Assembly: GCA_046563655.1 (NCBI GenBank)
Contig: CM102290.1
Coordinates: forward strand, 5,270,001-5,334,000
DNA from: Yuukianura sp. NJ FZ-2021
Taxonomy: Eukaryota
DNA: 64,000 bases
Direction of reading: 5' to 3'
In this document: piece after piece, positions 22,666-64,000 of the stretch
Position numbering within the stretch: the first letter of the stretch is position 1
Layout of the letters: each line of letters opens with the position of its first letter
Notes under the pieces: model-generated
What the model was told of the DNA's origin: nothing
Databases searched by the model: none
The model's input: only the letters and a program-made list of their open reading frames with translations
Position numbers and translations under genes: made by a program

Positions 22666-24174
22666 TCATGTCGACTTTTGCAGATCAATTTGTCCCTCCA
22701 GTGATTTGGCCAAATACATCACGAACAACTGGGAAGGAAAACGATCAATCGTTATAAAAACGTAATCATTTGTGTAATCGTGGTAAATTCTGTATTAAGT
22801 TCGTACCTGCATCAAGGCTACACCCAGTGCACTTCCAGCAACAATGTACAGATTGACAGTGACGAAGGATTTGATAGCTTCGATACACCCTGTACTCCAT
22901 ACTTTGTCTTTCGCATCCACTTGAAGGAGTGATGCATGTTTCATTCGAGCTCCAGGATCCTTGGCCACGCCCTCAAATCGAAGATATAACAAACACAAAT
23001 AACACTAGAAACTCAATTACTACAGAGTTAGTAGTTTAGTAGCAAGTTTTGTACAGTACTTACGATAGGATCTTGGACTCCGTATCCACACATTATGTTT
23101 ATCAGGCCGCTCTGTCAAAATCAGGACCAGTGACAACCTTTTAGTACTTTTGTTTACTAGAATGTTCGTGTTGGTATTCAAAAGTTCCTTACCGACATGT
23201 CCGTTGCATTTTTACAGCACGAAAAAGGCACTCCACCTAAATATTTCAACAAGAAACAAAATTATTAAACTAGGTTTTCTAAAAAACTTGTAGAAGGGTT
23301 TACTTACATCGTTCAACACCAGGGTTGAGGTCACGACGGGTACAATTGAAGTATTCGTTTTTAGACCAATCTTCATAGTTTTTGGAACTGAGCCCACAGC
23401 ATTTGAACTGATTGTGAGTGAACAAGGGTTACACAACCATAACAAAGAGAATGATGAATCATAAGAAAGTTGTGGCGAATGTACCTCTTTCTGAATAAAG
23501 TCGATCAAATTCTGAAGGTCAGCGTCATCACGGTACTTCTTGATCATGTTGTCTGTAAGAAACCCGGACACCAATCCCTCTACTTTGTGTGGATAGACGA
23601 AACAGATAATGGCAATGAGCAGTTCCGCCAGGAAGAACACCAATAGAGCAATTGAATACTGTGGAAAAACAAACAATCCAGAAAATCAAGTGTTAGAGAT
23701 TATAAGCAATGCAATGAAGTTAGAGTTTTAAGTTTACCAATTTGAGCAAACTTGTATTTTCACGAAGCGCGCCGATACAGCCAGCGAAACTAACAAAAAA
23801 TATTAAGACTCCTATAATGGCAATGATGAGGCCCACATTGAACAATACATCAGCAACGCTGTCAATCCGAACTCCTTCGCCTGATTGCCATTGGTCCACC
23901 AGGGCGTAGAATCCAATGCCGATAAGTCCACCACCGACCAACTTAAAAAATCGAAAATGAAACGATTAAGTATTCAAGTAATACTATTGGATTGTTGCGA
24001 AGTACAAAGTGTTGAAATTATTACCCAGAAGATAAAGTTGAAGAAGAACATGGTGTACTTGAGAAATGGACTAATGTAATTTCTGTTTCGACTCCTTGTG
24101 TACGGTGAGTACGGTATCATTCGTTCAACTTGTGCCCGTTGATGATGTTGCATTCTTGGATCGCGGTTCGCCAT
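22666..24174 (-). CDS. TspanC8-family tetraspanin (Tsp86D/Tsp3A-like, ADAM10 trafficking partner)
   Basis: FAGCIGALREN, YRDDADLQNLIDF, FKCCG, DWSKNEYFNC, CGVPFSCC, NIMCGYG, GCIE motifs and four TM segments. Probable 5'UTR exons near 24613-24950. Confidence 0.9.
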
Positions 24175-28577: not shown

Positions 28578-31500
28578 ATGGAAGGAGGAGTCAAGATTGA
28601 GGTCACGATGAAGAGAGACGTCGATAAGCTACTGGTACTTACAACTTCTAAGGGTAAAGACCTGGGCCAAGTCTTGAGGCAGCTGGAACTGTTTAAACGG
28701 CGGTTTAGCAATTACACCGAGGAAGGACGACGTTGGGAGGACAACGACCCGACTTCGAAAATGCTACTCCAATCTCGAATTTTTGAGGTCATTGCTGACT
28801 TGACTGAGGAACTTGTGTTTGAGATCAAGAGTGGACAGCACCTTTTCGATGACGGTGTGGAAGTCGTCTCGACTGCCATCAGTATCCTAGGAAACTACTT
28901 GTCTGTCAGGAGGCAGAAACGAGTTAGCGTAAGACTACCGAAATCGGTTGTATTCTATTCTTTTATAGTAGTAATTGTATAAATCAGTTTCAAATACTTT
29001 GCAGGAGGTTGAGTGGAAGAGAAGATTGGTTGACATCTTGAATGAACTCCTTCGGATCGAAGTTGTCTCCAAGAATGGCGAACTGATCAACCGGACATTC
29101 CGACTTCTCAGTAATCTGCTCATCCAGGGAGCAATTGATCCTCTCGTTGTGGCACGCATTGGCTTATTTGACACCACAGCTAAGGTCATTCTCAACGGCG
29201 ACGGCATCATTGCTCAAGATGCGAATGCATTGCAAAACATCCTCAAGTCCATCCTACGATTCATCTCCATTTGTGTGCAGAAGAAAGACGCAAAAATGCG
29301 TTTCAATTCGATGACTAATAGTGGAGTTGAACTTATTCTTTCACCGCTCGCTTGGAAGACGAACATTTTGCCAGTGGAATCCCTTCATTTGATTATGAAA
29401 CTAGTTCAATGTCTGGTTGGCCAAAATCTCGGAGCGATATCACGAGAAACCTTGAAACGGGTATGCCATCACCCAGAATTTTCCATTCCGTTCATAATTG
29501 GTATAATTCTAACTTTTTCTTTTGTATTCTTACAGTTCTGTCTTGCCCAAGAGACGTTGACCAGGATCCTGACTTACTATAAGGATTCGGAGTACAAGAC
29601 GGACTCTGAGTTGGTAGCACTGGATATCCTGAAGAATCTGCTAGCGAATGAACAAATGTCAAACACCCTTTTGGCACTTGATCTATGTAAAATACTCCAC
29701 GCCAAGTTGTCGGAGTCGGATGATCCGTCCATTCTGGGTATTTTGATATCTCCATTGACTTTCACTTTTAGTATTGTTTAGTTTAACTTTATTCCTTTCT
29801 CTTAAACAGCTCGTCATTTGAGACTGGTTGTGCAGTTACACGAGACTCATCAACGTTGGGCTTCCATGACACTTCATTCTGCCGTTTACTGGAACGAAGT
29901 TTGCGGATCTACGGTTAAGGCGCTTCGGTAAGTTTAAGACGCAACATTAAATTGGTATAGTTTCAGTTATAAATGGCTGGTTTATTTCTAACGCCTAAGA
30001 GTTATCTGATTCATTTTAATTGGAGTGTTTTTTTTTAAATAGTATGCAAGAGCTGTCAGCTTTTCATCCAACGATTCTGGCAATTTACACACAGTTGCCA
30101 AAGACTTTGTTTCTTCCACTGGTGAAGGAAGGACTGATGGATGAACTGGTGCGACGACTCGACGAGGCCATAGGACTACGTTCAATCGACGACGTCGTAA
30201 AGCAAGTTAGAACTGCCCAAGAAAATCACGTGGACATTCGCGACTCTTTGGATGCTGCCCACAAACATGTCACGCCTCCAGTTCAAGTAAGTTACCTCCA
30301 ACCTACGTTTTTTCAACGTTTTTTTTTCTACTCATTACGCTTGTGCAGAACACAAGTATCATTTGTCTCAATTTTACTAGGCTGTGTACTGCCCACCAAC
30401 TGAAGAGCTGGACTTCCTTGATGGCCCAACGTCTAAACTTTTGCTTGAAGGCAACTTTTTGCCGACGTTTGACGACGACAACTCACTTGAACAGATTCTT
30501 GGTCAAGACGATCCTATGCTAGAAGATGTTGAAATGGACGGTACAGCTTGTCCAGTTCCAAATACTGGTGAAAAGGCTCCAAAACAAGATCTCAAGCTCA
30601 TCTTTCGTATTCTAAGGATTCTACTGGCTGCTCCCGAAGTCCGACGAGACATTGTTGATCTCTTGCCCACTTTTCTGTATACGCTGTTCGACATTGGGTT
30701 CTATCACGACATTCGATGCGAAATGACTTGGATCAAGGGTGAGAAAGACACTCCGTGTGTTGTAGTCGTTGAACCATCCGGCAACGTCACGACCGCCGAA
30801 GACATGTCAAACTCGTCCATCTTTGTTGACTTGCACTACCTTGTTGGCGCCGTTTTATTGGAGGATAATCAACTTATCTTTTCCTTCGTCGATAACAAAG
30901 TTGCACTAATTCTGCAGAAGATGCGATGGATGGGCAGCGATTTCTTTGCAGCTAACTTGGGCATCCTTATGGATATGATGGCCGGTCGAGGTTCTACGAG
31001 ATGTTGGGATCTCAGTCGATCTTTCATTGGTCTTCGGTATCGCCGAGAGTCTGGATTGAACGTGGAGCCGATCGATATCAAGATACGGACGACAATTGCT
31101 GTGCTGTTTGACGACGTTGCGAGTTGGCTCGCCGACAGTGATAACATGCTCCTCAGAGGAATGGAAACGAAAGATGCTTGTACCGTAGCTGACCTAATGG
31201 AAGACATTTGTGTTGCTCTGATCACCATTGGCAACAGATTTCGACTTAAAAACTGGAGCGACGTAAAACAGCTGATTCAGGACAACCAGCTCTTGTCTCT
31301 GAAGCACACCGAGCCAAACTTTGTGTCTTTCGACAACTCTGATGGCAACTGTGTCTCTGTCGTTTTGAAAGGGGGAGCGATATTGCGGGTCAAAAAAGAA
31401 GCACTAGTCGAAGCTTCGGAAGTATTTGAACGAATGCTGGTTGGGGAATTTGTTGAAGCCAAGTCAAACCGAATTGAACTGCCGGACTTCTCTATTGATT

Positions 31501-31946
31501 CGTTCTTCATGTTTCTTCTGCACCTCAATGCAGGAAGAGAAGCCAAATCGACCTCCAGTGGACCAGTTACACTCGAAGACTTTACATCTCTGGAAGTAAT
31601 CTTCGAACTCCTGCGCATGAGTCATCAATTCATGGCCATGGACTTGTACCAGAACACTTTGAATTCAATTATTGGGAATCTCCTGTCTCCGTCGACTGTG
31701 ATTCCATTCTACAAATTGAGTCTGGAGATTCCAGAGTTCCCTTGCGACGTTGTTGGTGGCTGCAAGCTGACTTCTCGAACAGTCTTTCTGCACTACCTCA
31801 TAGCAACGGACTCAATTCATCCACTGGCCAAGGTAACCATGCTACAAGAAATGGTTGCTATGGACGTACACCTTATGGCAGACCTTCTACGTGAACTGTT
31901 GAAGGAAATCCGCGCCACGATTCCCCCTCCTCAGCCTCGCGCCTAG
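28578..31946 (+). CDS. Helical (ARM-like) repeat protein with C-terminal BTB/POZ domain, ARMC5-like architecture
   Basis: Long Leu-rich helical exons. BTB motif VSVVLKGGAILRVKKEALVEASEVFERMLVGEFVEAKSNRIELPDFS...FLLHL...ELLRMSHQFMAMDL lies near the C-terminus. Confidence 0.7.
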
Positions 31947-34768: not shown

Positions 34769-37374
34769 ATGAAAATTTCAACCAAATTTCGTCTCCTAGC
34801 AGCCATTTTTTTAAGCGTAAGAACAAAATTTCCAGCGTTTTCATTACCAAAAACCCTCAAAATTACAACAAATTTTGTTTCAAAAACTAGATTTGTGGGT
34901 GGACCAATGGGGCGGCGCCTAGAGGAAATTCAAAGACTTTCGAATGTCCATCATCCGGTTTGTTTCCAGTTGTTGGGGACTGCACAAAGTATTACCGTTG
35001 CCTCTTCGCTGGAATGCCTCCGCTGACAACCCTCCGCTGTCCCGATGGCGAACAATTTGAAAGTTCAATCCAAAAATGCGTTTCAGGAAATGGAAGGAGT
35101 TGTCCAGATCCAAATAGTCCAACCAAAGGTAAATTAAATACTGCTTTTAATTAGTTTTCCACTAAAATTTTAATTGAAACTTAATTAAATTAAGTATGTT
35201 TTGTATCAAATGGAAGCTGAAAGAAAAACGGAGTGTGCTGGGAATGGATACAAAGCTGATGCGAGTTCTAAGGAGTGGTACATCAAGTGTGAGGGTGGAG
35301 TGGCCACCAGAATGCGCTGCTTCCCACCAGGATCCACATACAACCCAGCGACTGAACAGTGTCGAAATTCAGCCGCTCCAAGTAAATTTTTCCCACGAAC
35401 TTTTAGTTTTGTAAATTTAAGTTTTTTTTTGTTCCCACAGAACCTATGGTCGAAAAGAAGCCCAGTGAAAAGGGCGGCCGCAAAGGCAGTGCCGTCAAAG
35501 GGTCGGAAGAAAGTTCTGAAAAGTCAAAGAAAAAGAATTCTGATGAAAATTCAGAGGGAAAGAGTTTGGAAGAAAATAGTTTTGAAGCGTCTGAAGAAGA
35601 GAGCTCTGAAGAAAAGTCCGTAGAAAAAAGTGGAGAGAAAACAAAGGAAGAGAGCTCAGCTGAATTAAATAAAAAGAGTTCTGAAGAAAACCTGGCAAAG
35701 GAAAAGAGTTCCGAAGAATCGAACAAAAAGAGTTCCGAAAAGTCCAAGGACAAGAGTTCTGACGAATCTAACGAAAAGAGTTCTAAAAAGTCCAAAGAAA
35801 AGAGTTCGGAAGAATCGAACAAAAAGAGTTCTGAGGAATCTAAGGAAAAGAGTTCTGAAGAATCTAAGGAAAAGGGTTCTGATGAATCTAAGGGAAAGAG
35901 TTCTAAAAAACCCAAAGAAAAGAGTTCGGAAGAATCAAAAGAAAAAAGCTCTGAAGAGTCCAAGAAAAAGAGTTCGGAAGAATCTAACGAAAAGGGTTCT
36001 AAAGAGTCCAAAGGAAAGAGTTCTGAAGGATCAAAGGAAAAGAGTTCTGGAGAGTCAAAAGAGAAGAGTTCTGAAAGATCAAAAGAAATGAGTTCTGAAG
36101 GATCAAATGAGAAGAGTTCTGAAGGATCAAAAGAGAAGAGTTCTGGAGAATCGAAAGAGAAGAGTTCTGAAAGATCAAAAGAAAAGAGTTCTGAAAGATC
36201 AAATGAGAAGAGTTCTGAAGGATCAAAAGAGAAGAGTTCTGGAGAATCGAAAGAGAAGAGTTCTGAAGGATCAAAAGAGAAGAGTTCTGAAGGATCAAAA
36301 GAGAAGAGTACTGAAGGATCAAATGAGAAGAGTTCCGAAGGATCAAATGAGAAGAGTTCTGATGGATCAAATGAGAAGAGTTCTGATGGATCAAATGAAA
36401 AGAGTTCTGATGGATCAAACGAGAAGAGTTCTGATGAATCTAAAGAGAAGAATCCCGAAGGATCAAGAGAGGGGAGTTCGGAATCGTCCAAAGCGAGTTC
36501 TGCAAAGCCTGCTAGCGCGAATTCTTCTCCCCAGACTGCAGCTGCCTTGCTAACCCGGGGTGAAGGAAAGCAGGAAGCTGCTCCAACGGGTAAAGACGAA
36601 CAGAAAGACCAGCGTAACGTTGAAGCAATTGCTGTGAGTAACGGTGAAAAGTCAGAGGCAGAAGCCAGAGTCAGCGGAGAAAAGAGTTCTGCAGCCAGCC
36701 GAGCAACTGGAGGGGACAGTCGAGCAGCGTCCATGGCCGAAGGAAACAACGCACGCGCCAACAGTACTGCGTCCGGTTAGTTTTTTAGGCCAGCGTTTCT
36801 AAAACTAACGAAAAACTTTCGATACTGACCTAAGTTTCTTGTTTTGTTGACATAAACAGGGTTCAGAAGTTCAACTCTTAGCTTCGCCCAAGGAAAGAAG
36901 GCCGAGTAAGCTTCTCAATGTCAAAGATTAACTCAAATTTTAAATTTTAAACTCAAAATTTTTAAACTTGTTAGAGCAACTTCCAATACTAAAGGAAAGG
37001 AGGGTTATGCCGCTTCGTCTTCAGTCGGAGATGGGTCTTCGGCGGCTGCAAAGAGTGATGGAGAACAATCACAGGTTTGGATAACCGTTTGTTGCAATTA
37101 AGAGTCAAGGAAATCCAACTACAAATAAGTTTACTTTCAATAGTCATCGGCCATTTCCACTGGAAAGGGCACAAAGGCTAACAGTACATCACGAGGTAAG
37201 GGAGCTGCATCCAAGAGCTACGCACAAGGTGAGAATTCTGCTGCTACGAGTTTGAGTTCAGGCCAACAGGCTCAATCCTACGCAGAGACTTCTGGTCAGA
37301 ATTCAAGAGCCTCCGCTACTGCAAACTCTGACGGCGGAGATAACGGAGCATCAGACGAGGAAGCAGATGAATAA
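34769..37374 (+). CDS. Secreted protein: peritrophin-A/CBM14 domain(s) + Ser/Glu/Lys repeat + 11-residue Gly/Ala/Ser repeat (about 7 exons)
   Basis: Signal peptide MKISTKFRLLAAIFLS|ICGWTNG; 6-Cys CBM14 (CPSSGLFPVVGDCTKYYRC...CPDGEQF....QKC......C); a second 4-Cys module. Exons continue in phase past the ORF-track stop to ...SDEEADE*. Confidence 0.85.
35700..36480 (+). repeat. Coding 24-bp tandem repeat (GAGAAGAGTTCTGAAGGATCAAAA-like; EKSSEGSK)
   Basis: About 30 units directly visible; they become more homogeneous toward the 3' end. Confidence 0.95.
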
Positions 37375-37785
37375 CTCACAGTCATCCAATTGACTAGCAC
37401 AATCAAATTTACTTGTACTTCAAATGTAAAATGACATTAGGAAAATATCGACGAGATGTGTACAATTTGGGTGTTTAGTAAAAGTAGTCGTCCACGTTCC
37501 GTTGTTCGATGGAAAATTGAATGGTGACGTAGGTCTAAAATTTCAAAAACCCGATAGTTATAAATGTTTCCCAAGTTTCGTGCAAATTGTTCAACAGTTT
37601 GAACAATTTCCATCGTCTTGAGCCGATTTACAGCTCAATTTCAGTTAAAAACTAATTAATGACATAGTTAAAGCTTTTAAAAATTAGACGGCAACTGCAG
37701 TACAAGTTCCATTTCCACGTTCCACTTCTGGAATTGAAAATGGACGTGCACTTTGAACTGTGTTGCCGCCTATAACATATAAGAT

Positions 37786-40700
37786 TCAAAATTTAAGTGT
37801 CGCTTCCTTGGCAAGTCCCAGTTTCCTTAGAGCATGTCGAATGTCCTCGTACACAGAGTTATCCTCAACCGTAGGCGGGATCTAAAAGTTTCAAAATTTC
37901 AAATTATCGTTTGACCTCTCCTCAACGTCAAAGTTTTAAATTTTAGTCAAACCTGACAAGTTTTGTTGCTGGCCAGTTCAGACAAAGATTTTCGAGGAGT
38001 TTTGCCAGACCGAGTTCGTGGAAGTGCTGGAACGGCGACCGCAAGCTTGAAAGCTGCCACGGGCCCCATCTCATCCCTAACCATTGTGACGAGGTCTGCA
38101 CTAATTTCCTTCTCTTCCTTCGTAGCACCTACGACATAACAAACAACTTAGGCGCCAATTTTATAATGTTCTAAGTATTTTAACCTGGTAAATGTTTAAA
38201 ATACTAAAAAATTTAAAATTAAAAAACGTCAAACTAAATCAGAATTTAAGTAGCGAAAGTGCTACTTTATGTTTTTCTCCGAGTGTGTCTGTCTGTCCGT
38301 CTGCCAATAATTTGATACCTTGTTTTATGACGTAGAGACAAAGGGGGACCTGCCCTTTGCCCTTGTGTGTCACCCCGACCACTACAGCATCAGTCACTTC
38401 TGGATGTTCCAAAACAATCTCTTCAAGCGCAGACGTGGAAATCCTGTGGCCAGCGACATTGATGACGTCATCAACCCTGGCCATCACATACAAGAACCCG
38501 TTTTCATCAAGGTAGCCAGCATCCATTGTGTCATAGTAGCCCTATAAAACACGAAACCATTACTCAGGACATTCAACAGTATTATTCCATTTAATTCTAT
38601 TAGCATTACACCAATATCCTAAGTCAATTCAACGATTATGTGCCTCGTGTTTGTTGTTGAATTGGACACAGTTGACCATGTCATTCACTCAACTAAAGTC
38701 CATTGTCGTAAACTTCTTTACTTTGTGTGTAAATTAAACGAGGGTAAACAAGGAGTGGAAGTCGTAAAGGAGATGACACGACTCTTGGCACATTCAGAAC
38801 AAATAACAATGACCATAAACTTTTAGTCATTGTGTTACCTGGAAGTTGTGGAAGTACTGGGCAGCAAACAGCTCGTCAGACTTGAAAAGTGTGTCCATGA
38901 AGCCCGGTGGCATCGGATGCTTACAGACGACGCGCCCCAACTCACCCACTTTACAAGGTCTCCCATTCTCCTGCAGAACTTGTACTAAAATTCAATCAAT
39001 CCAAAGAGGTTTCAGTACGAATTGACTTAATTTGAATCCTAAGGATAAGTACTACTGGATACCTTGGTACCCCGGTACCGGCAGGCCACAACTTCCCTCG
39101 GGCTGTTTGTAGTTGTGTTCCAAACCGACACAAGTAGCTGAAATGGGGTGGCCCGTTTCCGTTTGCCACCAATTGTCCAAAACAGGAACCTGTTTTGTTA
39201 CTTTTTGTTAGAAAGTTTTGAAATGACTCCACGACAGACGATTAATGCTAAGAATGTTGTGGGTGAAGGGAGAAAGTAAGTACATTGAAGGCTTCCGTGG
39301 TCCAAGTTCTCGTTTCATTGTCACAGTGTTCTCCAGCTACACACAAGTACCGTAGTCTGGAAAGACAAAACTAATGTAAAATTGGGAATAAACTTTGTAA
39401 TCCCTGGAATGTTCAAGATTAAACTCTCACGTGGGTGTTTTGAATTTGGATCTAAGTATTTTGTCAGGATCTTCCTTCCGAATGGCGCGAAGTGCAGAGG
39501 GTGCCGTAAACATTGCATTCACTCCATGCTCACTCACAACTCTGCAAATTAGAAATCAACATTAAACGGAATGGGAAGTCATAAAACACAAAGAGGCTCC
39601 ACAAAGACAAAAAGGCTCCGCTGGAATACATTCCAGCGGAGCCTTTTTGTCTTTTTGGTTACCACCAACCTGTAGAACTGCCCAGCATCCGGCGTACCGA
39701 CAGGTTTCCCTTCGTAAAGCACCGTCGTTAGGCGAGACAGGAGTGGACCGTAGCAAATGTACGAGTGACCTACGACCCACCCAAGGTCAGAAGCTCCCCA
39801 CCAAATGTCGCCAGGATCCATGTCGAAAATGGCTTTGAACGTCCAGGGAAGGACAACAGCATGTCCACCAGCAGATCGCACAACGCCCTTGGGGAATCCT
39901 AAGCACAAAATCCTTGGATTTTGATTGGTTGAGTGAAATCCAATGAAAGGTGGATGTTGGGTTAATTCTAACCTAACCTGTTGTGCCAGAGGTGTAGAGA
40001 ATGTAGAGTGGATGATGAGAGGGGAGTGGAATGCAGTCGTGACCTTTCAACCTTCGTCCAACCACTTCTTCCCAGTCCAGATCCCTTCCAGGCTTGAGCG
40101 TCGCTGGAGTGTGAGTTGGTCGTTGGTAAATGATGCAGTGGACATTCGTTGGAAGGTCGGCTAGCCGAATGGCTTCGTCTAGAATCGGCTTGTACCTGAA
40201 AAAAAAACAAAAACAAAACAAATTAATTGAAAAAGTTAATTACTTTCAGTGTCAAGGTTGATATTTAAGTCTCTGCAGCGGTGCCAAGTCATAAACCATG
40301 GCGCTATTTTTTTTTAAATTTGAAATCCCTTGATCCTACAGTCTTTTCAAATTATAAATGAGAGCGTGGTATTTTTAAGTTGCAGTGACTTTTGGAAGTG
40401 TAATTTAAAAAGGAGCTTTCACATTAAGCATTCCCTTTTCACAACAACACTTTTGGAAAGTGACTTTCTCCGGGACGTGTCACTTAGAAACATTTTGGAT
40501 CTTTGGAGGGAAACAGACATCAAAGGACGACAGTGTGAAATGATAAACTAATTTCTCAAATTATGACTCTAAACACAAAAACATTTCCAGCGACATCGTT
40601 TTTTGCATAATGGAGTCAGACACTTGTCGCAGCATTTAGAATTCGAACAGTCTCTTGTCGTAGTCATTTACCAAACAGTTCTGGTGGGCTCAATTCCACA

Positions 40701-47522: not shown

Positions 47523-50500
47523 TCATTCATCTTGAATCGTTGAGGTAGGGTTGGGCGGGAGACTCAGCACGGCGTCTCCACCTACACTGATGAGACACTG
47601 ACCCTGCGCAGAACAAAAAAAAAATCAAAACTAGTCTAATTTGCACCAGTGTTGTATATATTAGCTCCGCCCCTTGCCTGATTCTTGTGCGGGTTGTACA
47701 GGAGAGACAACTCTGTCATGAAGAAAGACACCAAAGCGTTTCCTCCAAGAGCAGAAACGTGACCTCTCAGAATCGCTGTCACTTCCATCACGAAACTGTG
47801 TACGAACCCGGTAGGCCCGCCCATCTATTACCAAAAACGGAATGTTAGTAATGCTATAAAAAAAATAATGTTATAGTGTATGGTCGGTTGCTTTGGTTAC
47901 CTCCTTGATGCTTGTAGTCTCTCGGATGAAGAAAAAGTTGAGGTTGCCCAAATACTTTTCAATTCGTTGCCCAGGGATGTGAGAGAGCGTCGTAATCTCA
48001 ATGATTCCACGTGCCTTGATGCCCGTCTATGAAAAAAATTAGGATTTTGAAATCAAAAATACAAAATTACAATCTCTCAGTTTGGCTTAAGTTGAGACCA
48101 AGGTTTGTTGACTTTGATTTTGTCTAACAGGTTGGGTAATACCTCATTTTCTTTTTTTGTTTTGATTTTGCAAAAAAGGTGTATTTTCATTTCAGGGCAT
48201 CGTAGTCATAACAATACAGCCGATTTTCTTTAAACTTTTGCACACGAATTGGTAGCAATTTTTCAAATTCTTACTAAAATTGGTATCAATCTTTTTTTTT
48301 TTCGTTTTTCTGTCAACAAGCGAGGTAGTATCCAACCTGTTAAAGAAAATAACTTTTCGTTGTCACGGAACCTTGGTTGAGACTTTTTCTCAAAAATTAC
48401 AATTATTCTTCCATTTTGGGGCTAGTTGAGACTTTTTTTTTTCTCAAAAACGTTGGACTTACGTTAGTGGAAGATCTGGATCTGGCCAATGGAGGTATGG
48501 AGCAGACGGGGATCGGCACACCGCCTTGTTCTAGGTGGGGGCAGGGGGTGGGGGGCAGGAGGGGGATTTTGTTCAACACGGCCGACGGGATGTAGCGATT
48601 GAGAGAATTTTGAGTGGTGAGGGGACAACCGCTTGGACAAAATTTAGCACCACCTCCAGCACCTTTTCCCATTGACTCTGAGCCCTCCAGAGAGTTGAGG
48701 CGGGAGAGGTGAGAGGCCGAGGGGGATGAAACCATAATAGCCGTGACAGGATTCGAAGTGGCGACTACCGTCGTGCATGTCCTTGGCACAGTCCACAAAC
48801 TGCTTTCACCCAAACATTCTCCACTCAACGTATGCTTTCCCTCACACTCCAAGTTGAATATCATCTCTCCATTTTCATCTCCACCACAACCTGCAAAAAT
48901 ATACAAACCAAAAAAAATCAAAACCAAAAGTTCATTTCCCCAAAACGTAAACTTTTTTTAGCATTACACAAAGCTCTCGCGCCAGGCAACAAGAGTCAGT
49001 CTAACTTTTGACATTTGCAAACCATCTTACTTTTCTAAAATCTGAAAAGGAAGAACTGTGGCCATGAAATGAATTCAAAGAAAAACGTAAGGAAAAACTC
49101 ATTAGTTGGTTGTAGAGTGCCTGTGAACTCAATTACTGTTGAGTAGTATCTCTTGTGGGGAATAAAAATAAGACTTGGGAGAATTGGATCTCATTTGATC
49201 CGCTTCAAAGTTCTTGTTTTTCTAATAAGTTCCAGGAGTTATTACTATTCATAACTTCATTCTCTCCAATCCAATCACATCTCCAAGCTATTTACAATCT
49301 CAGCATGTTGAATTAGTTACTCCCTCCAAAACTCACGCCCTTTCTTACTTTCTCAAGGAATTCTTAATAAATTGAATACCAAAGAGTGTCACCCCAACAA
49401 AATTCCTTCGCTAAACGAGTCACAGCTAATTAAAAATAGTTTGTCTAAAATACTTTTCAGAATTGGATTTCAAAAAAAAATTTTTTTTTAAACTTCTTTA
49501 AAAAAAAACTTTTTTTTCTCTTTCTTTTTTTTTTTTGAAAAACTGCATTTTTGCTTACCTTTTGGTTGTAGCATGGGAGAGTGAGAAGCTGAGGTGGCCA
49601 GGACCGTGTTGGAGCCGCTTCTACTCTCCGAAGGTAAACTTGTCATTTTTTCTTTGAGGCCGAGAGCTGTGCCTGCAGATATCAGAATCAATTTTATCCT
49701 AAACTTTTATCTTAACCTTTTATCCTAAACTTTTATCTTAACCTTTTATCCTAAACTTTTATCTTATTTACAAAAGTTTTCTCTTACCTGTTACACAAAC
49801 TTGCATCTCATCTGCTTCTGGAAGTTCCAAACGCAGGCGGATTTTGGTTAGAATGCATGGCCGCATTGAACGCAGTTTGAACGAGATTGACTAAAAAAAC
49901 ACAAAAATAAAAGCTCAAGTCAAGAAAAACTATTTCTTGATTTCCGATTTCAAAAAATTTCAAAAAAAAAGTTTCCAAAAATTGATTCCTGCTGATTACC
50001 CTTAGAATTCGGTCGAAATGTGCTGAGAGTTGGCGAAGTGAGAGCGAGGGAATTCTGCATCTCCAGACATGGATGAACATTTGTTGTTTTGAGATCGTAA
50101 AGTCGTCGTAGCCAAGTACATGTTCCAGATTGCTCATGTCAAATCCAATACTGGGTGGACTGGGGTCAATCAACTCTGAAATGATTTCAATGTCCTCCGA
50201 ATCATCAACTTCCAAGACATAAGTGTCCTTGTTCCCCGTTGCCAAATTCATCAGTGGAGAATCATCTTCAGACTCATTTTCAGAACTGTCCGACTCTCCA
50301 GTGCCCTACAAACATTCAAACACAAAAACTCAATTGAAATTGAAAAAAAACTAGAAAAATACAAACTGAAAAAAAAGGCGTAAAGACAGGAATTCAGAGC
50401 GGGAGAGTTAGCTCAATGGTGAGAGCGATTACTCCGGAAAGGTACGAGTTGGTTCGAGTCCAACTCAAGCCAAATATTTTTTTTCTCTCTCTTTCTTGCA

Positions 50501-53500: not shown

Positions 53501-56500
53501 AGACAAGTCGCCACTATTGGGCAGACGCAGTTCTCGACTCAAAAACTTTTTCCGCAACCCATCTCGTAGCAATGTGTCACTTTTTGCAGGCGGAGTCACG
53601 GAGACGCCGGACATGAGCGTTGTCATTGGATACAACTTGTACCCCGAAGGAATCCAAAAACTACCAGGTAAAAATCTAACCTCAAAATCCACTTTTTCCA
53701 AATTCAAATTTCAAAATTTCAGGAGAAATTCCAAGAATCACTGTGGATGGCGAGCCACTGCCAGACTCCGAATCCATTGCTCAAAACGGCCTTCCTGGAA
53801 TCGACGATGTCAACCAATGCAAACGAGTCATGTTTCGACATGTTCCAGGAAACAGTAACCAAAAAATCACTTTTGGCAAAACATCTTTCAAAAAAACACT
53901 TTTTTAGTTTCTGATTTTTGAAAACTAGACTTTTTCTTCGAACTGATCAAAATGAATGCAACGAACGAGCGTGTGTTTCTCGTGTGCGAACCCAACGAAG
54001 GCTCCAAACTGCTCAACATGTCCAGTCGTCACTTTAACATTTTGTTCATCGGGCGGGACGGGAAGGAAGTCATGTCCATCCGACCATGTCCAAACACCAA
54101 GGAGGTACCATGTCAATGTCAATGTCACATGACATGTCAATGTCATGACCCATGTCAAATAACCCACTAAACTATGCATATCATTCCAGACGGTGTCCGT
54201 CCTGTACAAAAAGCAAGAGCTGGGCAGAATCGTGCGCCACCCGGCGGGTGACACGGTGTCTTCCACGTCTCCGAGTCATACTATTGTAGACAGGAATGGG
54301 GAGAGAGTATTTATTATGCGCAAGAGAGTTCAAGTGACTAAAACGAAAACATGCTGCTTCAACAACGGAGCTACAAAGGTGGACAATGGCTACAACATCT
54401 TCATCGTCAAGAAGAGCGACAGTGGAGCTGAAACGACGGAAGAGGAGATCGCTGTCGGTTCGATTTGCGATTCCGAAACACAAATCAAATTCAATTCAGC
54501 AGAATTTTCAGCCAATGAGGACCTTGGTCTTGTTCAGAAGGCTCTCCTTCTCGCTACTCTCGTCACTCTCGTAAGTCAAGCGATATCGAATACTATCCCA
54601 ACAGAAACAAAACGTTATCCAATACTATCCCAACAGAAACAGAACGTTTTCCAATACTATCCCAACAGAAACAGAACGTTATCGAATACCGTAAGAATGC
54701 AATCCGAATATTATCGAATCGTGTCCGACGTTATCTAATAGTCTCTTAACGTTATCTCAATTATCTCAGTTATCTCAATGTCGTTAGTATCTCAATGCTA
54801 TCGCTATGTTATCTAATAGTATCCCGAGGCAAGCACAACGGATTCTAATAGTATCTTAATGCTATCCCAACGTTATCGAATAGTATCCTGAGGAGAACGG
54901 AACGTTATCGAATAGTATGGTATTAATGCAGCAAAACGTTATTTTTTCAGAAAACAAAGGCTCTGCAGTCAGTTGGAGCTGGGTTCAGAATTTCCCTGGC
55001 GTTCTAAACAAAAACTGCCACACCGCACGTTTCGACAATAGCTAACGTTGTTTCGAAAAAAAAATAAGAGGCTCACGACATCGTCCTAACCAATGATCAT
55101 GAACTTAACAATACTATTGACTAATAAAGTTAAAAGTTGAAATAGTTAAAAGTGAAAATAGTTAAAAGTTAAAATACAATATACAACTCACCTATGCGCT
55201 GAATGAACTTGGGTGGGAGATCGTAGATTGTGATGAACGGATATTCCAGCATATCGAAATGATCTGAACTCGCTGCTGGGCGTCGTGACGGAGCAAACGT
55301 AGGGCCTTTTCCATGCGGTCCAGACAAGATGGCCTGGATACTCGAGTTCAAAATTCCTACAAAAATTCAAAATTTTATCAAAATTTCGAAAAACTATCTT
55401 TTTCAAATAATTTAGAGTGGAAATACCTTTTGGTGGTGTGGACAAATCGGATTCAGAAGACCGGCGCCCGTTGGTTCCAATGCCATTGTGGTGGTGTGTT
55501 CCAAATCCTTTGCTTGGCGAAACAGAACTGAGCGTGCGTGGAGCCGTCAAGGGTTGACTCATGTTCGTGGCACTTCCGCCGTGACTTTGGTCCTTCAGGG
55601 AACCCTTGACCCGCCCATTCGTCCCGGCGGGTTGATTCGAACTCGCAGCCTGTCCGGCGGGTATTTTGGCCTCTGCTGCTGAATTCTCATTGGAGGAAGT
55701 CTGTTCTTCAGGAATTGGTTCAGAAATGGCGGAAGAAGGTGGCAACGTGTTGGAGGTGCCGAGCTGCGTGACCTGCGTGACCTCGTCATGCGCCTGAATC
55801 TCTTCTTTACTCCCTCCCCCACTCATCGCTGCATTTCCACTGATCGGGACAAGAGGAAAGGTGGAAGGAACAAACGTAAGTTCATTATTAGCACTCTTAC
55901 TACGCTTATGAGTCCTGTTAGATTCATCTACTACACAAACAGCACTGTGACGCATGCTGCAGACATGCTGCCCAAGTACATCCTCTCTGTCACAAGCATT
56001 TTTATTACTACCCAAAGCATCTCCGTCACTACCAGCCCCACACACAAGCAAAGCATCAATGCTGGAAATGTACAAGCGAAGGGATTGGTCACTTGGACGC
56101 TCATACCGCAGAAAAGTTTCTTCCTGAAACGGGTCTCGAACTGGCGGACTACCGTGACCAGGCAAAATCGTGTCCAGATCAAACACCTTTGGACTGTTGG
56201 CGGACGACGGTAGAGTGGCATAGTTCATGCGACATGACCAGCCGATATCTTCTGATAGAAGTGACGGTAAGCTTTCAACCGATTCTCTACCGACTGAATA
56301 GCTTTCGCTCGTTGATCTTCGGAGATCTCCGGATCTTCCTTGTCTTTTTCTTGCCAACCGGGACAGGCGACTTCCTAAAGTAAAAAAGTCTCTTCTGAGT
56401 CTGGGTTTGCGATAAGGGCCCCTTGCGACTTCCTTGGCCTTCGGAGTGGGCCCTTGGACACTTTGTCTCCTTTTGAAAAACTTCATAAATTCTTCTTTCA

Positions 56501-59108
56501 ACTTGTCACTACTGCGCAGGCCACTTGAAGGGAGACTCATGATCGTGATGTTTGCTCTTTTGATGAGTCCAGTGGTGGAGTACTTGTCTTTTTTCTTGGA
56601 CAGACGTGGTTTGTAGTTATTTGCATTGACTTCTAGTGGATCTTCTCCGTCAGTTCCTCGATCTTCGTCTGATTCAACAAGCGAAGTTCTTCGGAACGTT
56701 AGAATGCTGCTATCGCAAGATGTTTGTGGTGTCAACTTCTGATGAAGCGGTGAATTTGAAATTGGGCGGTCAGTGAGGATGGAATTTCCTGCCGGACTGG
56801 ACAGTCGGAGGATGACTTCTGCCAAATTACTGTCCCTGTTGCTGGTCATCGTCACATTGGGTTTTAGAACTGGTATACTGGCAGTATTTTGGGGAATACT
56901 GGCAGCATTTGTAAAGTGGTTAGGTTGAGCAGTGGACACAAAACTAGTAGTGTTAGAAGAAGGGCGGTGGGAAGCAGGGGAAGGATGGGGAGAAGGAATT
57001 ACCGCAGGATGCAATTGCCCATCCACATGAAACCTAAGGAAACCATAAACAAAGTCCAGTCTCCTCTCCACCAGGTTACATGTAATATGGTCAAAAACTA
57101 TTTGGTCAAAAAGTGAAAAGGTCAAAAAGTAAAAAGGTCAAACATTAAAAAAACCTAACCAAGCTTATTACTTGTAATGGCTGATATTTTGACTTTCAAT
57201 TTTTGACTTTTTCACTTTTTGATTAAATTGTTTTGACCATTTCACCTGCTACGCTCAGACTGTCCAACGCTATGACCTTATTTTAAAAACTACTTTTTTC
57301 TTTATAAAAACAGTATTTTTTTTTTTTCAAAATTTTGAACTTTTTTTCAATTCTGGTCAAATGTTTGGAAACTGCGAACGGGGTGGGAACAGTAAACGAG
57401 AGAAGAAGAAGGGGACATTGATTGGCGGACAGAAGCTCCAGTCAACTTTGGCAACAAAAGCTGAAGACAAAGGCTCCACCACCCTGCGTCTGCGTCCCTT
57501 AAAGGGCCTCCCTTTCCAATTAGCCTTTTACACTTAAGTGCTGTACTTACTCTCTGTCCGGAATCGGTGACAATTGGGTGTCATAACTCTTGGTTAGAGT
57601 AGCAGCAGTTCCGATTCCACGAACGACAATCCCCGATTCTCCTTCCAGGTCAAAACATTGTTTGTACCTGAAAAAAGTCACAAACTTTTGAATTCACTCA
57701 AGACAAAACTTGAATGTAAAATTAAAATTACACCAATAGTTTTTTACCCAATGACAGCATTCCCGCCAAGTTCCAAAGCCTTCAGCCCCACGCGTCGTTG
57801 GACTTCGCCTGACAGTTTGGAAAAAAGTGTTTGGCGTGCTTCATTGGATGCCCGCGGTGTTCGAATCTTGTCAATCCACTGATACTCTGGATCGTCATTC
57901 ACAACAAGTTCCTCAACGAATCCATGCAATTGAATTGCCTGGTGACCCTCAGGAATATTTGAACCTACGGCAAAAAAATTCAATTTGAATCCGCAATCAG
58001 CATCACTTCAAAGCATAATTAACGAGGGTGTTGGGTATGGGGCAAAAACAATTTTTAAACTTAATAAAAAAAAATTTTTTTTTTAAGTTTTTTGAAAAAA
58101 AAATTTTTTTAAGTTAAGTTCAAAAAAAGAATTTCAAAATTTTGATGGGAAGGGTCTTCAATGAAATGCCCACCCCACCAACAATTTTTTTTTACCGGAA
58201 AACTGTTGGAAATGGTTGGCAAATATGCAATTGCGGAATTACATCTTGTCATTAGTATTGTAAAAATTTGTAAAGACTTACTAAAGAAAAACTTGACTCC
58301 ACATGAGGATTGTCGAAACTTGTTTAAATCCGAAAACAGTTCGACCTTGACCATGAGGTTGACCTCTCCGCGAATCCCATGCATCGTATCATACACAGGG
58401 ATCCATCCACTCATTGACCTTCCAGAAGGTTCTACAAAACGTATACAACTTCAAATCAACCTAGCAGCCAAAATGGTCAACATAATTTGATCAAAAAGTG
58501 AAAAAGTCAAAATAATTTGATCAAAAAGTGAAAAAGTCAAAATAATTTGATCAAAAAGTGAAAAAGTCAAAATAATTTGATCAAAAAGTGAACATGTCTA
58601 GCGCTACAAATAGTAGGTTATGTTTGGAGAGGCTACATTTTGGTGTGTTTGACCTTCTCACTTTTGACCTTTTCACTTTTTGACCAAATTGTTTTTGACC
58701 ATATGACATGGAACCACTCTGACCTTTCGTTTTGGATGGATTTGTGAGGAGTGGGTTGAGGTCAATGTATACTTTTCCAATGGAGTCATTGGCTGAGTAG
58801 GTGTCGTGGTCCATGAGCCGAATCTGAAGTGGTTCATCCTGAAGTTCCAAATCATCCATCTAAATACAATAATAATTTACATTAATATAATAAATTATAT
58901 AAAACAATTAATAACTTTTTGAATGTCTCACTTCAAATCGAAACCATTCCGAGTTCCACTGTGGATTGAGTGACTTCCTGCAGACGTCTGTCTTGAACGT
59001 GACATTTCCCAACTTGACCTCGACATAGGCGTCTGTCGTATCATTTGACCTGTCCATCACTGGCAGATTCTTCCCTGCAATTACTTTCACTTTCACCTTC
59101 CCCGGCAT
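47523..59108 (-). CDS. C2CD5: C2 domain-containing protein 5 (CDP138/KIAA0528), multi-exon
   Basis: MPGKVKVKVIAGKNLPVMDRS.DTTDAYVEVK; DHDTYSANDSIGKVYIDL; SGWIPVYDTMHGIRGE; EELVVNDDPEYQWIDKIRTPRASNEARQ; SARSVKLLERI; LPFLEYELHRRL; HVSALGGNALV; HKNQGQCLISVGGDAV. Confidence 0.95.
48099..48375 (+). mobile_element. CAAGG-terminated MITE, copy E (C2CD5 intron, splice signals antisense to host)
   Basis: Reverse complement of copies B and D; perfect 8-bp TSD GTTGAGAC. Confidence 0.9.
49691..49766. repeat. 26-bp tandem repeat x3 filling a C2CD5 intron
   Basis: TTTTATCCTAAACTTTTATCTTAACC repeated. Confidence 0.85.
50396..50484 (+). repeat. tRNA-derived SINE-like element / tRNA pseudogene
   Basis: A-box TAGCTCAATGG, B-box GGTTCGAGTCC and a following T-run; acceptor and anticodon stems pair poorly. 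Confidence 0.65.
51165..51245 (-). repeat. tRNA-derived SINE-like element / tRNA pseudogene, second copy
   Basis: AGAGCGTGATAGCTCAATTGGTAGAG...CCGGAAAG...GGGTTCGAGTCCCACTC...TTTTTT; shares the start, the CCGGAAAG block and both boxes with the 50396 copy. Confidence 0.65.
51903..52289. mobile_element. hAT-type MITE in a C2CD5 intron
   Basis: TAGGAGTGTAAATCCG ... CGGATTTACAGCCATA with flanks TTTACAAG / TTTACAAC. Confidence 0.75.
53052..55007 (+). CDS. Divergent phospholipid scramblase/LURP-one-like protein nested antisense in a C2CD5 intron (about 6 exons)
   Basis: Phase-consistent exons start MDAQNKENAG (53052-53175) and end ...RISLAF*. Motifs RHFNILFIGRDGKEVMSIRP, IVDRNGERVF, CCF, VGSI and DLGLVQKALLLATL match the scramblase pattern. 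AATAAA at ~55123. Confidence 0.65.
57074..57253. mobile_element. Foldback-like MITE (GGTCAAAAAGTGAAAA units)
   Basis: Inverted arms; reverse-orientation relative of 58460-58715. Confidence 0.7.
58460..58715. mobile_element. Foldback-like MITE with an amplified 30-bp unit (58487-58590)
   Basis: AAATAATTTGATCAAAAAGTGAAAAAGTCA x3-4 with an inverted right arm; same family as 57074. Confidence 0.75.
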
Positions 59109-61863: not shown

Positions 61864-64000
61864 ATGTCGGGAACACGGAGGAACAATCAGTTGCCAAACA
61901 ACTTACCTCAGCTTCAGAATTTAATCAAAAGGGATCCAGAGAGTTACCATGAAGAGTTCTCTCAGCAGTACACCCATTACCAGGCACAGCTCCAGATATT
62001 CCTCCTTCGTCCCAGTGAATACAGCAAGGACCTCGCAGAGTTGCTCATCTTCATTGCCCAAGTGGCTCAGTGCTACCCCAAGGATCTAGCAACTTATCCA
62101 GCAGAACTCATGCAAATCCTGGAGAAGTTTAGCATGGTTCTGGACACGGAGATTCGCATGGTATGTTCTTTCGGTATTCTTCCTTCCTGATAAACAAACT
62201 GATAAACTGATATTTCCTTTCAGACGATGTGTCGTTCTTTGGTGCTGATGAGAAACAAGAATTTGCTGGATCCCACCACACTCATTTCCCTTTTCTTCAA
62301 ACTCCTCCACTGCCAGGACAAAAATCTGAGAAAATTCCTGGAGACACATATACTTACGGATATCAAAAACGTCAATTCAAAACACAAGAACGTCAGGCTG
62401 AACACAGTAAGGATTAAGTTCTGCTTCTGCTCAAACAATCAATTTTTTTATAGGATTTTCACACTTGTGTGAAAAAACGTTTGTCAACGTTTTTTGTTGT
62501 CTTAGGTTCTTCAGAACTTTATGTTTCAAATGATTCGAGACAGTAACGTCAAAGCCATGAAAATGTCACTCAACATTATGATTGAACTGTACCGGAAAAA
62601 CGTTTGGAACGATCCTAAGACCGTCAACGTCATAGCAACCGCCTGTTTTTCAAAAGTTACCAAAGTCATGGTCGCTGCTCTCCAGTTCTTCCTCAATGTC
62701 CAATCAGATGGAGACAAGTCGGACAGTGACAGTGACGACGATGGTCCCAATGCCAAAGAAGTCATTATGGCCAATCGTGTCAACAAGAAAACGCGAAAGC
62801 GGGAGAAGAATTTAAGCAAAGTCAAGTCAGTTATCAAGAAGAAGAAAAACAAAGACAAGGCTCCCAACTTTAACTTTTCTGCCTTACATCTGATCCATGA
62901 TCCACAGGGGATGGCGGAGAAGTTGTTCAAGCAAATGGAGTCGATGAATGAACGTTTTGAAGTGAAGATTATGATGTTGGATCTCATTTCTCGTCTTATC
63001 GGAACACATCAGCTGATTCTACTGAACTACTATCCTTATATCAAGAAGTTTCTGCAGCCACACCAGAGAGAAGTAACAAAAATTCTGCAATTTGTGGCCC
63101 AGTCGGCTCATGACCTTGTTCCCCCTGACGTCCTTGATGGTGTTCTGGATGCCATTGTGAACAACTTTGTGACTGAGAGGAACTCTGGAGAAGTGATGGC
63201 TGTTGGTTTGAATGCTATTCGTGCCCTCTGTGCTCGATGTCCACTCGTTATGAACCGAGACTTGCTACACGATCTAACGCAGTACAAATCCTACAAGGAC
63301 AAAAGTGTCATGATGGCCGCCCGAGGTCTCATTCATCTCTTCCGAGACGTGAATCCTCAACTGCTCCAGAAGAAAGACAAGGTATGTCACATGCCAAGAT
63401 CCATTTTTAACTTTTTCAATTCAAGTTGGCCTAATTCACTTTATTTTTCAGGGCAAACCGACGTTAGCTACACTGGAGAAAGAACCGAAGCAGTACGGAG
63501 AGTTGGATGCTAAAAATTATGTTCCTGGAGCAGAAGTTTTACTTCGTGAAAATAATGATGACGTAAGGACAATGGCCTTGGCACGTGAAATGCTCCATAA
63601 ACCTACTAATCATTGTCTCATTTGTGTCAATTCTCAACGTTTTGTTTTCGTTTTGTAGGAAGATAAGTCTGACTCTGCAGTAGAAGATGATGATGACGAC
63701 GACAGTGGAAGTGAAGACGGGGAGGACTGGGTCAACGTTTCTCATTCGTCGGAGGAAGAGGAGGAGGAAGAAGAATCCAAGGGTGGCGTGACCCTTGACC
63801 CGGCCGTGCGGAAAAGTCTAGCTGCCATGGTAACTGAATCGAGGATTTTGACCGATGAGGACTTTAAAAAGATTGAGACACTGCAACTTCAGAAGGAAGT
63901 TTTATCAGCCAGGAAAGGAAGTGCAAAGAAGCGGAAGGCCACGGATACGCCCTACACCTCCTCTGCAATGTCAGTTGTGTACTTACTTACTAAAACCTTA
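61864..64000 (+). CDS. SDAD1: Protein SDA1 homolog (60S biogenesis), 3' end beyond the window
   Basis: [103 protein letters not shown]. Confidence 0.97.

Follow-up and report, generated by a model that had tools for sequence, protein, structure and literature searches.

A 14-unit, 11-residue repeat at the C terminus of a peritrophin-like protein of Yuukianura sp.: a candidate silk-like beta-roll

What kind of structure, if any, keeps a repeat of exactly 11 residues in register over 14 units when no matching repeat is visible in its DNA and three introns cut across it? The question is raised by a gene on the plus strand of contig CM102290.1 of Yuukianura sp. NJ FZ-2021 (assembly GCA_046563655.1), within a stretch of 64,000 nucleotides (positions 5,270,001 to 5,334,000) that is referred to here as the window and whose own numbering is used throughout. 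Judged from its sequence, the encoded protein is a peritrophin-like CBM14 protein, and the repeat forms its C-terminal module (residues 552-705 of the 720 in our model). A first-pass annotation, made from the letters of the DNA alone, had described the repeat and proposed a flat beta-solenoid or cross-beta fold for it. Here, we analyzed the sequence, splicing, and predicted structure of the repeat. The reading that fits best is a silk-like, two-layer beta-roll that would act as a self-association module; we hold this tentatively, at a probability of roughly 35%, and weigh it below against a helical fold, the absence of any fixed structure, and two functional alternatives.

The repeat and its splicing

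Joining the last four exons in a single frame gave 14 in-register units of 11 residues between 36643 and 37326 (introns excluded), followed by a stop codon. The joined exons reproduced exactly the units listed in the first-pass annotation, which had placed them within 36620-37330, and its description of Gly at position 1 with mostly small residues at positions 4, 6, 8, and 10 held up when the residues were counted. Position 1 was Gly in 14/14 units, accounting for 14 of the 19 Gly in the domain, all in phase and spaced by 11. Small residues occupied position 4 (Ser 8, Ala 4, Gly 1, and Thr 1), position 6 (Ala 10, Ser 3, and Thr 1), and position 8 (Ser 9 and Ala 5) in every unit, and position 10 in 13/14. 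No charged residue was found at positions 4, 6, 8, or 10; these residues lay mainly at positions 2, 3, and 5. Overall, Ser (35), Ala (31), and Gly (19) made up 85 of the 154 residues of the domain, with Ser and Gly together contributing 54, and both Pro and Cys were absent. When the 154 residues were shuffled, 0/100,000 trials placed 14 Gly in a single phase at any of the periods tried (5 to 20), and the observed column order was matched by 0/20,000 shuffles within units.

The self-identity of the repeat had maxima at lags of 11, 22, and 33 residues (0.34, 0.29, and 0.26, respectively, and approximately 0.1 elsewhere), and the units have diverged far from each other, with a mean identity of 30% at the amino acid level and 41% at the nucleotide level (33-base units). 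Tandem Repeats Finder reported no 33-base period in 36620-37330, while it did report the adjoining array of 24-base repeats (35696-36470, plus strand; 32.3 copies, 82% matches, score 787), which encodes 8-residue units of Ser, Glu, and Lys. The period is therefore, as the first-pass annotation had put it, invisible at the DNA level. Across these diverged units there was not one insertion or deletion, and the 11-residue spacing was exact. The conserved Ser columns mixed TCN and AGY codons, interspersed with codons for Ala, Thr, and Gly, and all four Gly codons (GGT, GGA, GGG, and GGC) were used in the repeat. Such mixing of codons and residues within conserved columns is the trace expected from long selection for small side chains, rather than for one particular residue. 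Since the units are old and diverged, yet have kept their length and their small positions with no repeat at the DNA level, the sequence supports selection on a periodic structure and not a recent DNA repeat. The structural selection proposed in the first-pass annotation thus gained support from the divergence, the mixed Ser codon families, and the unchanged unit length.

These same features bear on the possibility that the domain has no fixed structure at all, i.e., that it is a hydrophilic, disordered, low-complexity tail whose periodicity is what remains of a worn, old tandem duplication under constraint on composition only. We regard this as somewhat unlikely. Disordered repeats normally drift in length, whereas 14 units at this low identity have done so nowhere; positions 4, 6, and 8 have remained small in every unit through switches between Ser codon families that require two base changes; and the young adjoining array offers an unconstrained repeat in the same gene, at 82% DNA matches, for comparison. 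The fact that the domain lies beside a plainly low-complexity array counts, on the other side, in favor of disorder.

The introns provided further information on how the repeat is put together. Exon 4 (35441-36775, plus strand, as are all exons of the gene) ends with a linker and units 1-4 (36643-36774), plus the single base that opens the Gly codon of unit 5. Exon 5 (36860-36905) completes unit 5 and continues to the middle of unit 6; exon 6 (36975-37074) runs from there through units 7-8 to the middle of unit 9; and exon 7 (37144-37374) carries the remainder of unit 9, units 10-14 (37162-37326), an acidic tail, and the stop codon (37372-37374). The tail consists of 15 residues, including seven Asp or Glu, no Lys or Arg, and no Cys. 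Within the units, the junctions fall at position 1.3 of unit 5, position 5.7 of unit 6, and position 6.0 of unit 9. The register is unbroken over all three, so that the period is indeed kept across the introns, as had been claimed. Exon duplication was considered as an origin of the units and ruled out, since the introns interrupt units 5, 6, and 9 at non-equivalent positions.

The three introns (36776-36859, 36906-36974, and 37075-37143; 84, 69, and 69 bases) all have GT..AG borders, with the donors GTTAGT, GTAAGC, and GTTTGG and acceptors ending in AG, and these were the only canonical borders there. It was also observed that all three lengths are multiples of three and that each intron, when translated by read-through, contains in-frame stops (immediately so in the first), so that intron retention would truncate the protein.

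Sequence contigs from four runs were compared over 36450-37450. A contig of run X4 (record 4; 3,484 letters, depth 77.2) aligned to 36450-36774, 36859-36905, 36975-37072, and 37142-37450, and its three GT..AG joints omitted 84, 69, and 69 bases, i.e., the predicted introns. Exons 5 and 6 are both spliced within this contig. The first-pass annotation had left its reading of the last exons, as joined in one frame, to a cDNA check, and the X4 contig joins them as predicted. Run X4 has the guessed label 'DNA?' and shares its sample with what is probably the source of the window; among the runs listed for 36450-37450, none is recorded as RNA. A molecule lacking exactly these three introns is what is expected of a transcript assembly, and if the contig were a processed DNA copy, a spliced mRNA would have to have existed all the same. 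The unspliced stretch was carried by contigs of runs X1 and X3. The sole difference seen among the sequences was a C>G change at 36984 in exon 6, in runs X3, X4, and X5, which, by reading of the frame, alters the third position of a Ser codon and leaves the residue unchanged. Run X5, labelled as another organism (organism B) and belonging to another study, was near-identical over 36964-37450 (1 difference in 487 letters, depth approximately 5), and its sequence comes either from this species, carrying a different label, or from a very close relative.

Evidence for and against a two-layer beta-roll

Each unit consists of Gly, two polar or charged residues, and then eight positions at which small and large residues alternate. 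The alternation was clear from side-chain volume, with means over positions 4-11 of 91 cubic angstroms for the small and 131 for the large positions. By Fourier analysis, the power of side-chain volume was 24.3 at a period of 2.2 residues, which is beta-like, versus 6.0 at the helix-like period of 3.67. For hydropathy, the corresponding power was 10.0 at period 2.2, 0.2 at period 3.67 (98.2 degrees), and 0.5 at 100 degrees.

Comparison of odd- and even-numbered units revealed that two unit types alternate, giving a super-period of 22 residues. This test was chosen post hoc, and its P values are indicative only. Hydrophobic residues were present in 7/7 odd units and in 1/7 even units (P = 0.0047 by Fisher/permutation test; 0.002 by column shuffle). 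Conversely, Thr or Asn at positions 7 and 9 occupied 8 of the 14 places in even units and none of the 14 in odd units (P = 0.0019), and Ala was found at position 6 in all seven even units compared to three of the seven odd ones. Overall identity was no higher between units of the same parity (0.294) than between units of different parity (0.301). The alternation and its 22-residue super-period are new, going beyond what the first-pass annotation had described. The super-period is what would be predicted if the fold had two layers and each coil took in two units, and pure disorder offers no explanation for alternating unit types.

The silk-like beta-roll would work as follows. The protein would be secreted, with its pair of CBM14 domains anchoring it to chitin in the peritrophic matrix or cuticle, and the central Ser/Glu/Lys array would serve as a hydrated, probably phosphorylated spacer. 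The repeat would fold, possibly not until the molecules assemble, into a flat beta-solenoid with seven coils of 22 residues each, in which every unit would provide a three-residue turn (Gly and the two polar or charged residues) followed by a strand of eight residues. Two sheets would result, with the small residues of positions 4, 6, 8, and 10 packed between them. Odd units would form one of these sheets, with an outer face bearing a few hydrophobic residues, mostly at position 9, and even units would form the other, with an outer face bearing Thr and Asn. Through the hydrophobic face or the open ends, modules could then stack on each other, and chitin-bound molecules would become cross-linked in a network.

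The putative Thr/Asn face also raises the possibility of an ice-binding or water-ordering module, in which the Thr/Asn ladder at positions 7 and 9 of the even units would act like the T-x-T or T-x-N faces of antifreeze solenoids. The restriction of Thr and Asn to even units speaks for it, as does the organism, which is probably a springtail; springtails have known antifreeze proteins. These known antifreezes are, however, bundles of Gly-x-x, polyproline-type helices, with Gly at every third residue, unlike the repeat described here, in which only 19 of the 154 residues are Gly and 14 of these are spaced by 11. The ladder is also irregular, with Ala, Arg, Lys, Leu, or Ser at 6 of its 14 places; two of the Asn fall in N-x-S/T glycosylation sequons; and the module is not free but attached to chitin-binding domains and to a long charged array. 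We consider ice binding very improbable. The antifreeze protein of Rhagium inquisitor, with which the first-pass annotation had compared the repeat, has a very thin two-sheet fold with an interior of small residues and regular Thr arrays on its ice-binding face. Such arrays are absent from the repeat, in agreement with the first-pass remark that the outward positions do not form them, and when all Protein Data Bank (PDB) chains were searched with a profile of the unit, the matches were limited to three fucose lectin sequences; their E values of 0.042-0.098 apply to whole proteins, and no individual stretch had an E value of 10 or better. A kinship with the Rhagium protein found no support.

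Several results weigh against the beta-roll. Neither of two AlphaFold2 predictions for fragments of the domain gave beta structure. The 76-residue piece encoded by the last exon had a mean predicted local distance difference test score (pLDDT) of 59.1, with 0/76 residues reaching 70, and no secondary structure. A 64-residue piece comprising the linker and units 1-4 was predicted as one helix (residues 4-63) at a mean pLDDT of 85.5, the five models ranging from 61.2 to 85.5. Both predictions were of fragments covering one third of the domain or less and were made without an alignment, which makes them a weak test, and we take them as real but weak evidence for the helical and disordered alternatives. 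By charge and hydropathy, the domain also falls just across the boundary into disorder (0.399 versus 0.425), and just 11 of its 154 residues (7%) are hydrophobic. In addition, the super-period test was selected after the data had been inspected, no relatives against which to test conservation were found in the collections searched, and both the signal peptide and the way in which the four upstream exons are joined are predictions, with no reads covering the upstream junctions. Predicted packing of three uninterrupted pieces of the domain scored 0.02 against a mark of 0.34; this was done without controls and weighs neither way.

The flat beta-solenoid or cross-beta fold of the first-pass annotation thus stands in part, as the volume alternation and the super-period fit it while the AlphaFold2 fragments do not show it. 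Disorder, which that annotation had named among the outcomes that would speak against its proposal, is hinted at by the prediction for the last-exon piece, and the linker with units 1-4 came out helical. The low confidence and lack of secondary structure in the former, together with the charge-hydropathy balance and the scarcity of hydrophobic residues, are points in favor of a disordered tail.

The prediction for the linker and units 1-4 points instead toward a hendecad helix (11/3 alpha-helix), in which each 11-residue unit would make three turns. Its small residues would enable very close helix-helix packing, or the domain would fold only upon drying or at a surface, like group 3 late embryogenesis abundant (LEA) proteins. 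On such a helix, Gly1 and positions 4 and 8 would form one small stripe, and positions 6 and 10 a second one on the opposite side. Eleven residues is the classic period of the helices of LEA group 3 proteins, apolipoproteins, and synucleins, and a 22-residue unit made of two unlike 11-residue halves recalls the apolipoproteins. The long continuous helix predicted by AlphaFold2 also supports this reading, although fragments rich in Ala, Glu, and Lys that are folded without an alignment commonly give long single helices. Ala, Glu, Lys, Gln, and Arg together account for 67 of the 154 residues. In the portion of one report that was available (PMC2246132), LEA group 3 proteins are described as hydrophilic, with an 11-residue unit that is poorly conserved between species, and a putative springtail LEA clone is described. 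The tandem 11-residue units (14 here), the hydrophilic composition, and the helix predicted for units 1-4 are thus shared with this group, as far as that portion goes. Against a helix, hydropathy has no helical moment in the repeat (0.2 at 98 degrees versus 10.0 at period 2.2), an invariant Gly recurs every 11 residues, and Ser and Gly are abundant. Units 10-14 were not predicted as helical, and neither LEA_4 nor any other Pfam family matched at E ≤1 in the three pieces scanned (units 1-4 and 9b-14, with exons 5 and 6 outside the scan). Furthermore, the secretion-type N terminus and the chitin-binding domains are unlike typical cytosolic LEA proteins. We judge the helix to be unlikely.

The chitin-binding protein, its relatives, and the window

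The complete gene model comprises seven exons on the plus strand, with an open reading frame (ORF) of 720 codons and no internal stop. Exon 1 (34769-34816) contains the ATG and encodes 16 residues, by eye a basic and then hydrophobic N terminus, before a GTAAGA donor. Exon 2 (34891-35128) encodes the first CBM14 domain (Pfam CBM_14, E 6.1e-08, 33.1 bits), and exon 3 (35217-35381), whose acceptor was picked by phase, a second, shortened one (E 5.8e-06, 26.8 bits). The corresponding matches to CBM_14 (PF01607), at 34891-35154 and 35189-35400, both exceed the gathering score of 22.1. CBM14 domains are defined by six conserved Cys. The first domain has all six, at model residues 35, 47, 53, 66, 79, and 87; the second was seen to have four (residues 102, 120, 130, and 144), yet scores above the Pfam cutoff. 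Phase-1 borders connect the CBM14 exons to exon 4.

Most of exon 4 encodes the Ser/Glu/Lys array. Of the 401 residues from 151 to 551, 119 are Ser, 88 Glu, and 83 Lys, and 72 of the 119 Ser are in an S-x-E context. As S-x-E is the motif of the casein kinases of the secretory pathway, heavy phosphorylation of the array is a reasonable guess, and its sequence suggests a heavily phosphorylated, secreted spacer. A gene on the opposite strand was also considered, as there is a 457-residue ORF at 35403-36776 on the minus strand. This ORF mirrors the low-complexity array and is taken to be a by-product of the repeat; since the plus strand carries all of the CBM14 exons and GT..AG borders as well as the stop codon, the minus-strand gene was rejected.

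The signal-like start, the CBM14 domains in tandem, and a long spacer that is low in complexity and rich in Ser are features shared with arthropod peritrophins and mucin-like CBM14 proteins. The spacers of peritrophins are Thr/Pro-rich, whereas the one found here is rich in Ser, Glu, and Lys.

Searches for relatives of the repeat gave no usable matches. An exhaustive phmmer search with the last exon against 1.84 billion representative sequences returned 0 matches at E ≤0.001, which is usual for fast-evolving disordered regions and to that extent favors the disordered alternative. A word-indexed search with the linker and units 1-4, made within proteins of 250-798 residues, gave 35 candidates, none of them at E ≤0.01. 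Two pattern scans of metagenome contigs yielded 594 and 599 pattern matches, of which 0 were confirmed, and the ESM Atlas contained no usable match for the repeat. For the first CBM14 exon, a word-indexed search for orthologues returned 17 candidates, none of which scored. Within the window, a triple-unit profile and a pattern scan of 2,062 six-frame ORFs matched only the three exon pieces of the gene itself; the search for paralogues suggested in the first-pass annotation thus came back empty over these 64 kb. The blank results partly reflect the distance of the organism from annotated genomes and the low complexity of the queries.

Downstream of the gene lies a convergent AMP-binding (acyl-CoA synthetase-like) gene on the minus strand (37947-40046), with an AMP-binding_C match at 38239-38541 and an AMP-binding match at 39582-40046. 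The spliced X4 contig extends 2,624 letters past 37450, and the two genes may overlap at their 3' ends or may have been merged in assembly. Further away, the window contains an exon for SDA1 HEAT repeats (62506-63510, plus strand; E 1.3e-114), a piece of a tetraspanin gene (23215-23685, minus strand), and a C2CD5-type domain (49811-50305, minus strand). Two long open frames, at 30381-31943 (plus strand, 521 residues) and 55191-57137 (minus strand, 649 residues), had no Pfam match at E ≤0.001. By these sequence matches, the window is part of an animal genome with closely packed genes. The SDA1 exon matched 1,774 proteins at E ≤1e-20 among 4,242 candidates. Its best match was an unnamed JGI protein (80% identity) and the best named match was from the springtail Allacma fusca (77%); two entries from Orchesella, also springtails, were at 68-69% and the listed insects at approximately 64-71%. 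By these identities, the window probably belongs to a springtail with the Symphypleona as its nearest group, and proteins of this animal itself are absent from the collections.

Known systems and what the repeat would mean

In working principle, the nearest match to the repeat is the designed polymer (GAGAGAGX)n, which the available part of its description (PMC5388506) presents as an initially disordered chain that forms a two-sheet beta-roll with Ala inside and then stacks into fibrils. Common to both are the alternation of small residues in the strands, a polar residue beside Gly at the turn, and two units per coil. The polymer, as described there, differs in having an 8-residue unit and in being a design derived from Bombyx silk. 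Compared to it, the repeat has small residues at only every second strand position, its outward positions are polar or variable, and its units alternate.

The second comparison drawn in the first-pass annotation was with the cross-beta silk of lacewing egg stalks. According to the part of the report that was available (PMC5485732), the egg-stalk proteins MalXB1/2 and ChryC1-3 have a core period of 16 residues, a Cys motif, and a composition rich in Ser, Gly, and Ala, and their fixed period is held to give the cross-beta structure. A similar role can be envisaged for the repeat, in which each unit would contribute a single strand to an antiparallel meander, the chain turning over four residues around the Gly, and in which the sheets of many molecules would stack by their small faces into a drawn fiber or film, e.g., in the secretion of a stalk or coat. 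The pattern evidence cited for the beta-roll serves this reading equally, as geometrically an antiparallel meander also puts positions 4, 6, 8, and 10 on one face. Ser, Gly, and Ala are the most abundant residues in both cases (85 of the 154 residues in the repeat), and both have a fixed period. However, the period is 11 or 22 here and not 16, Cys is absent from the domain and tail, and the exhaustive search with the last exon gave 0 matches at E ≤0.001 to lacewing silk or to anything else among the 1.84 billion representatives. Nor does a single-sheet meander predict the alternation of unit types. The lacewing proteins are dedicated silks, whereas the repeat is a short module of 154 residues ending a 720-residue chitin-binding protein, not a silk core, and has no family of paralogues within the window. 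Apart from the abundance of Ser, Gly, and Ala, the proposed kinship was not borne out, and we consider an intermolecular silk of the lacewing type quite improbable.

A 2026 study of Keroplatus silk lists chitin-binding proteins among the components of a dipteran silk-like secretion, and the part of it that was available mentions no such repeat (PMC13728221). Among the literature matches listed, no CBM14 protein with an 11-residue repeat at its C terminus was found.

The two-layer beta-roll could represent an undescribed natural fold family, namely a flat, silk-like beta-solenoid that has a 22-residue repeat of two unlike 11-residue halves, is filled with Ala and Ser, and shows a hydrophobic face on one side and a Thr/Asn face on the other, tethered to chitin in a springtail, and either self-assembling into a sheet-stacked matrix network or ordering water or ice at the chitin surface. 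In this full form, the proposal is doubtful. If the domain is instead an 11/3 helix or disordered, peritrophin-like proteins would simply have one more example of a low-complexity tail, and its interest would be local. If it is a beta-roll of natural origin whose interior resembles that of silk, no other two-sheet solenoid of its type would have so short a period, and the designed (GAGAGAGX)n materials would have a counterpart in nature, complete with a chitin anchor, making it relevant to protein designers, to biomaterials research, and to studies of the arthropod extracellular matrix. It would then also show that a lineage-restricted repeat can be maintained by selection on side-chain size alone.

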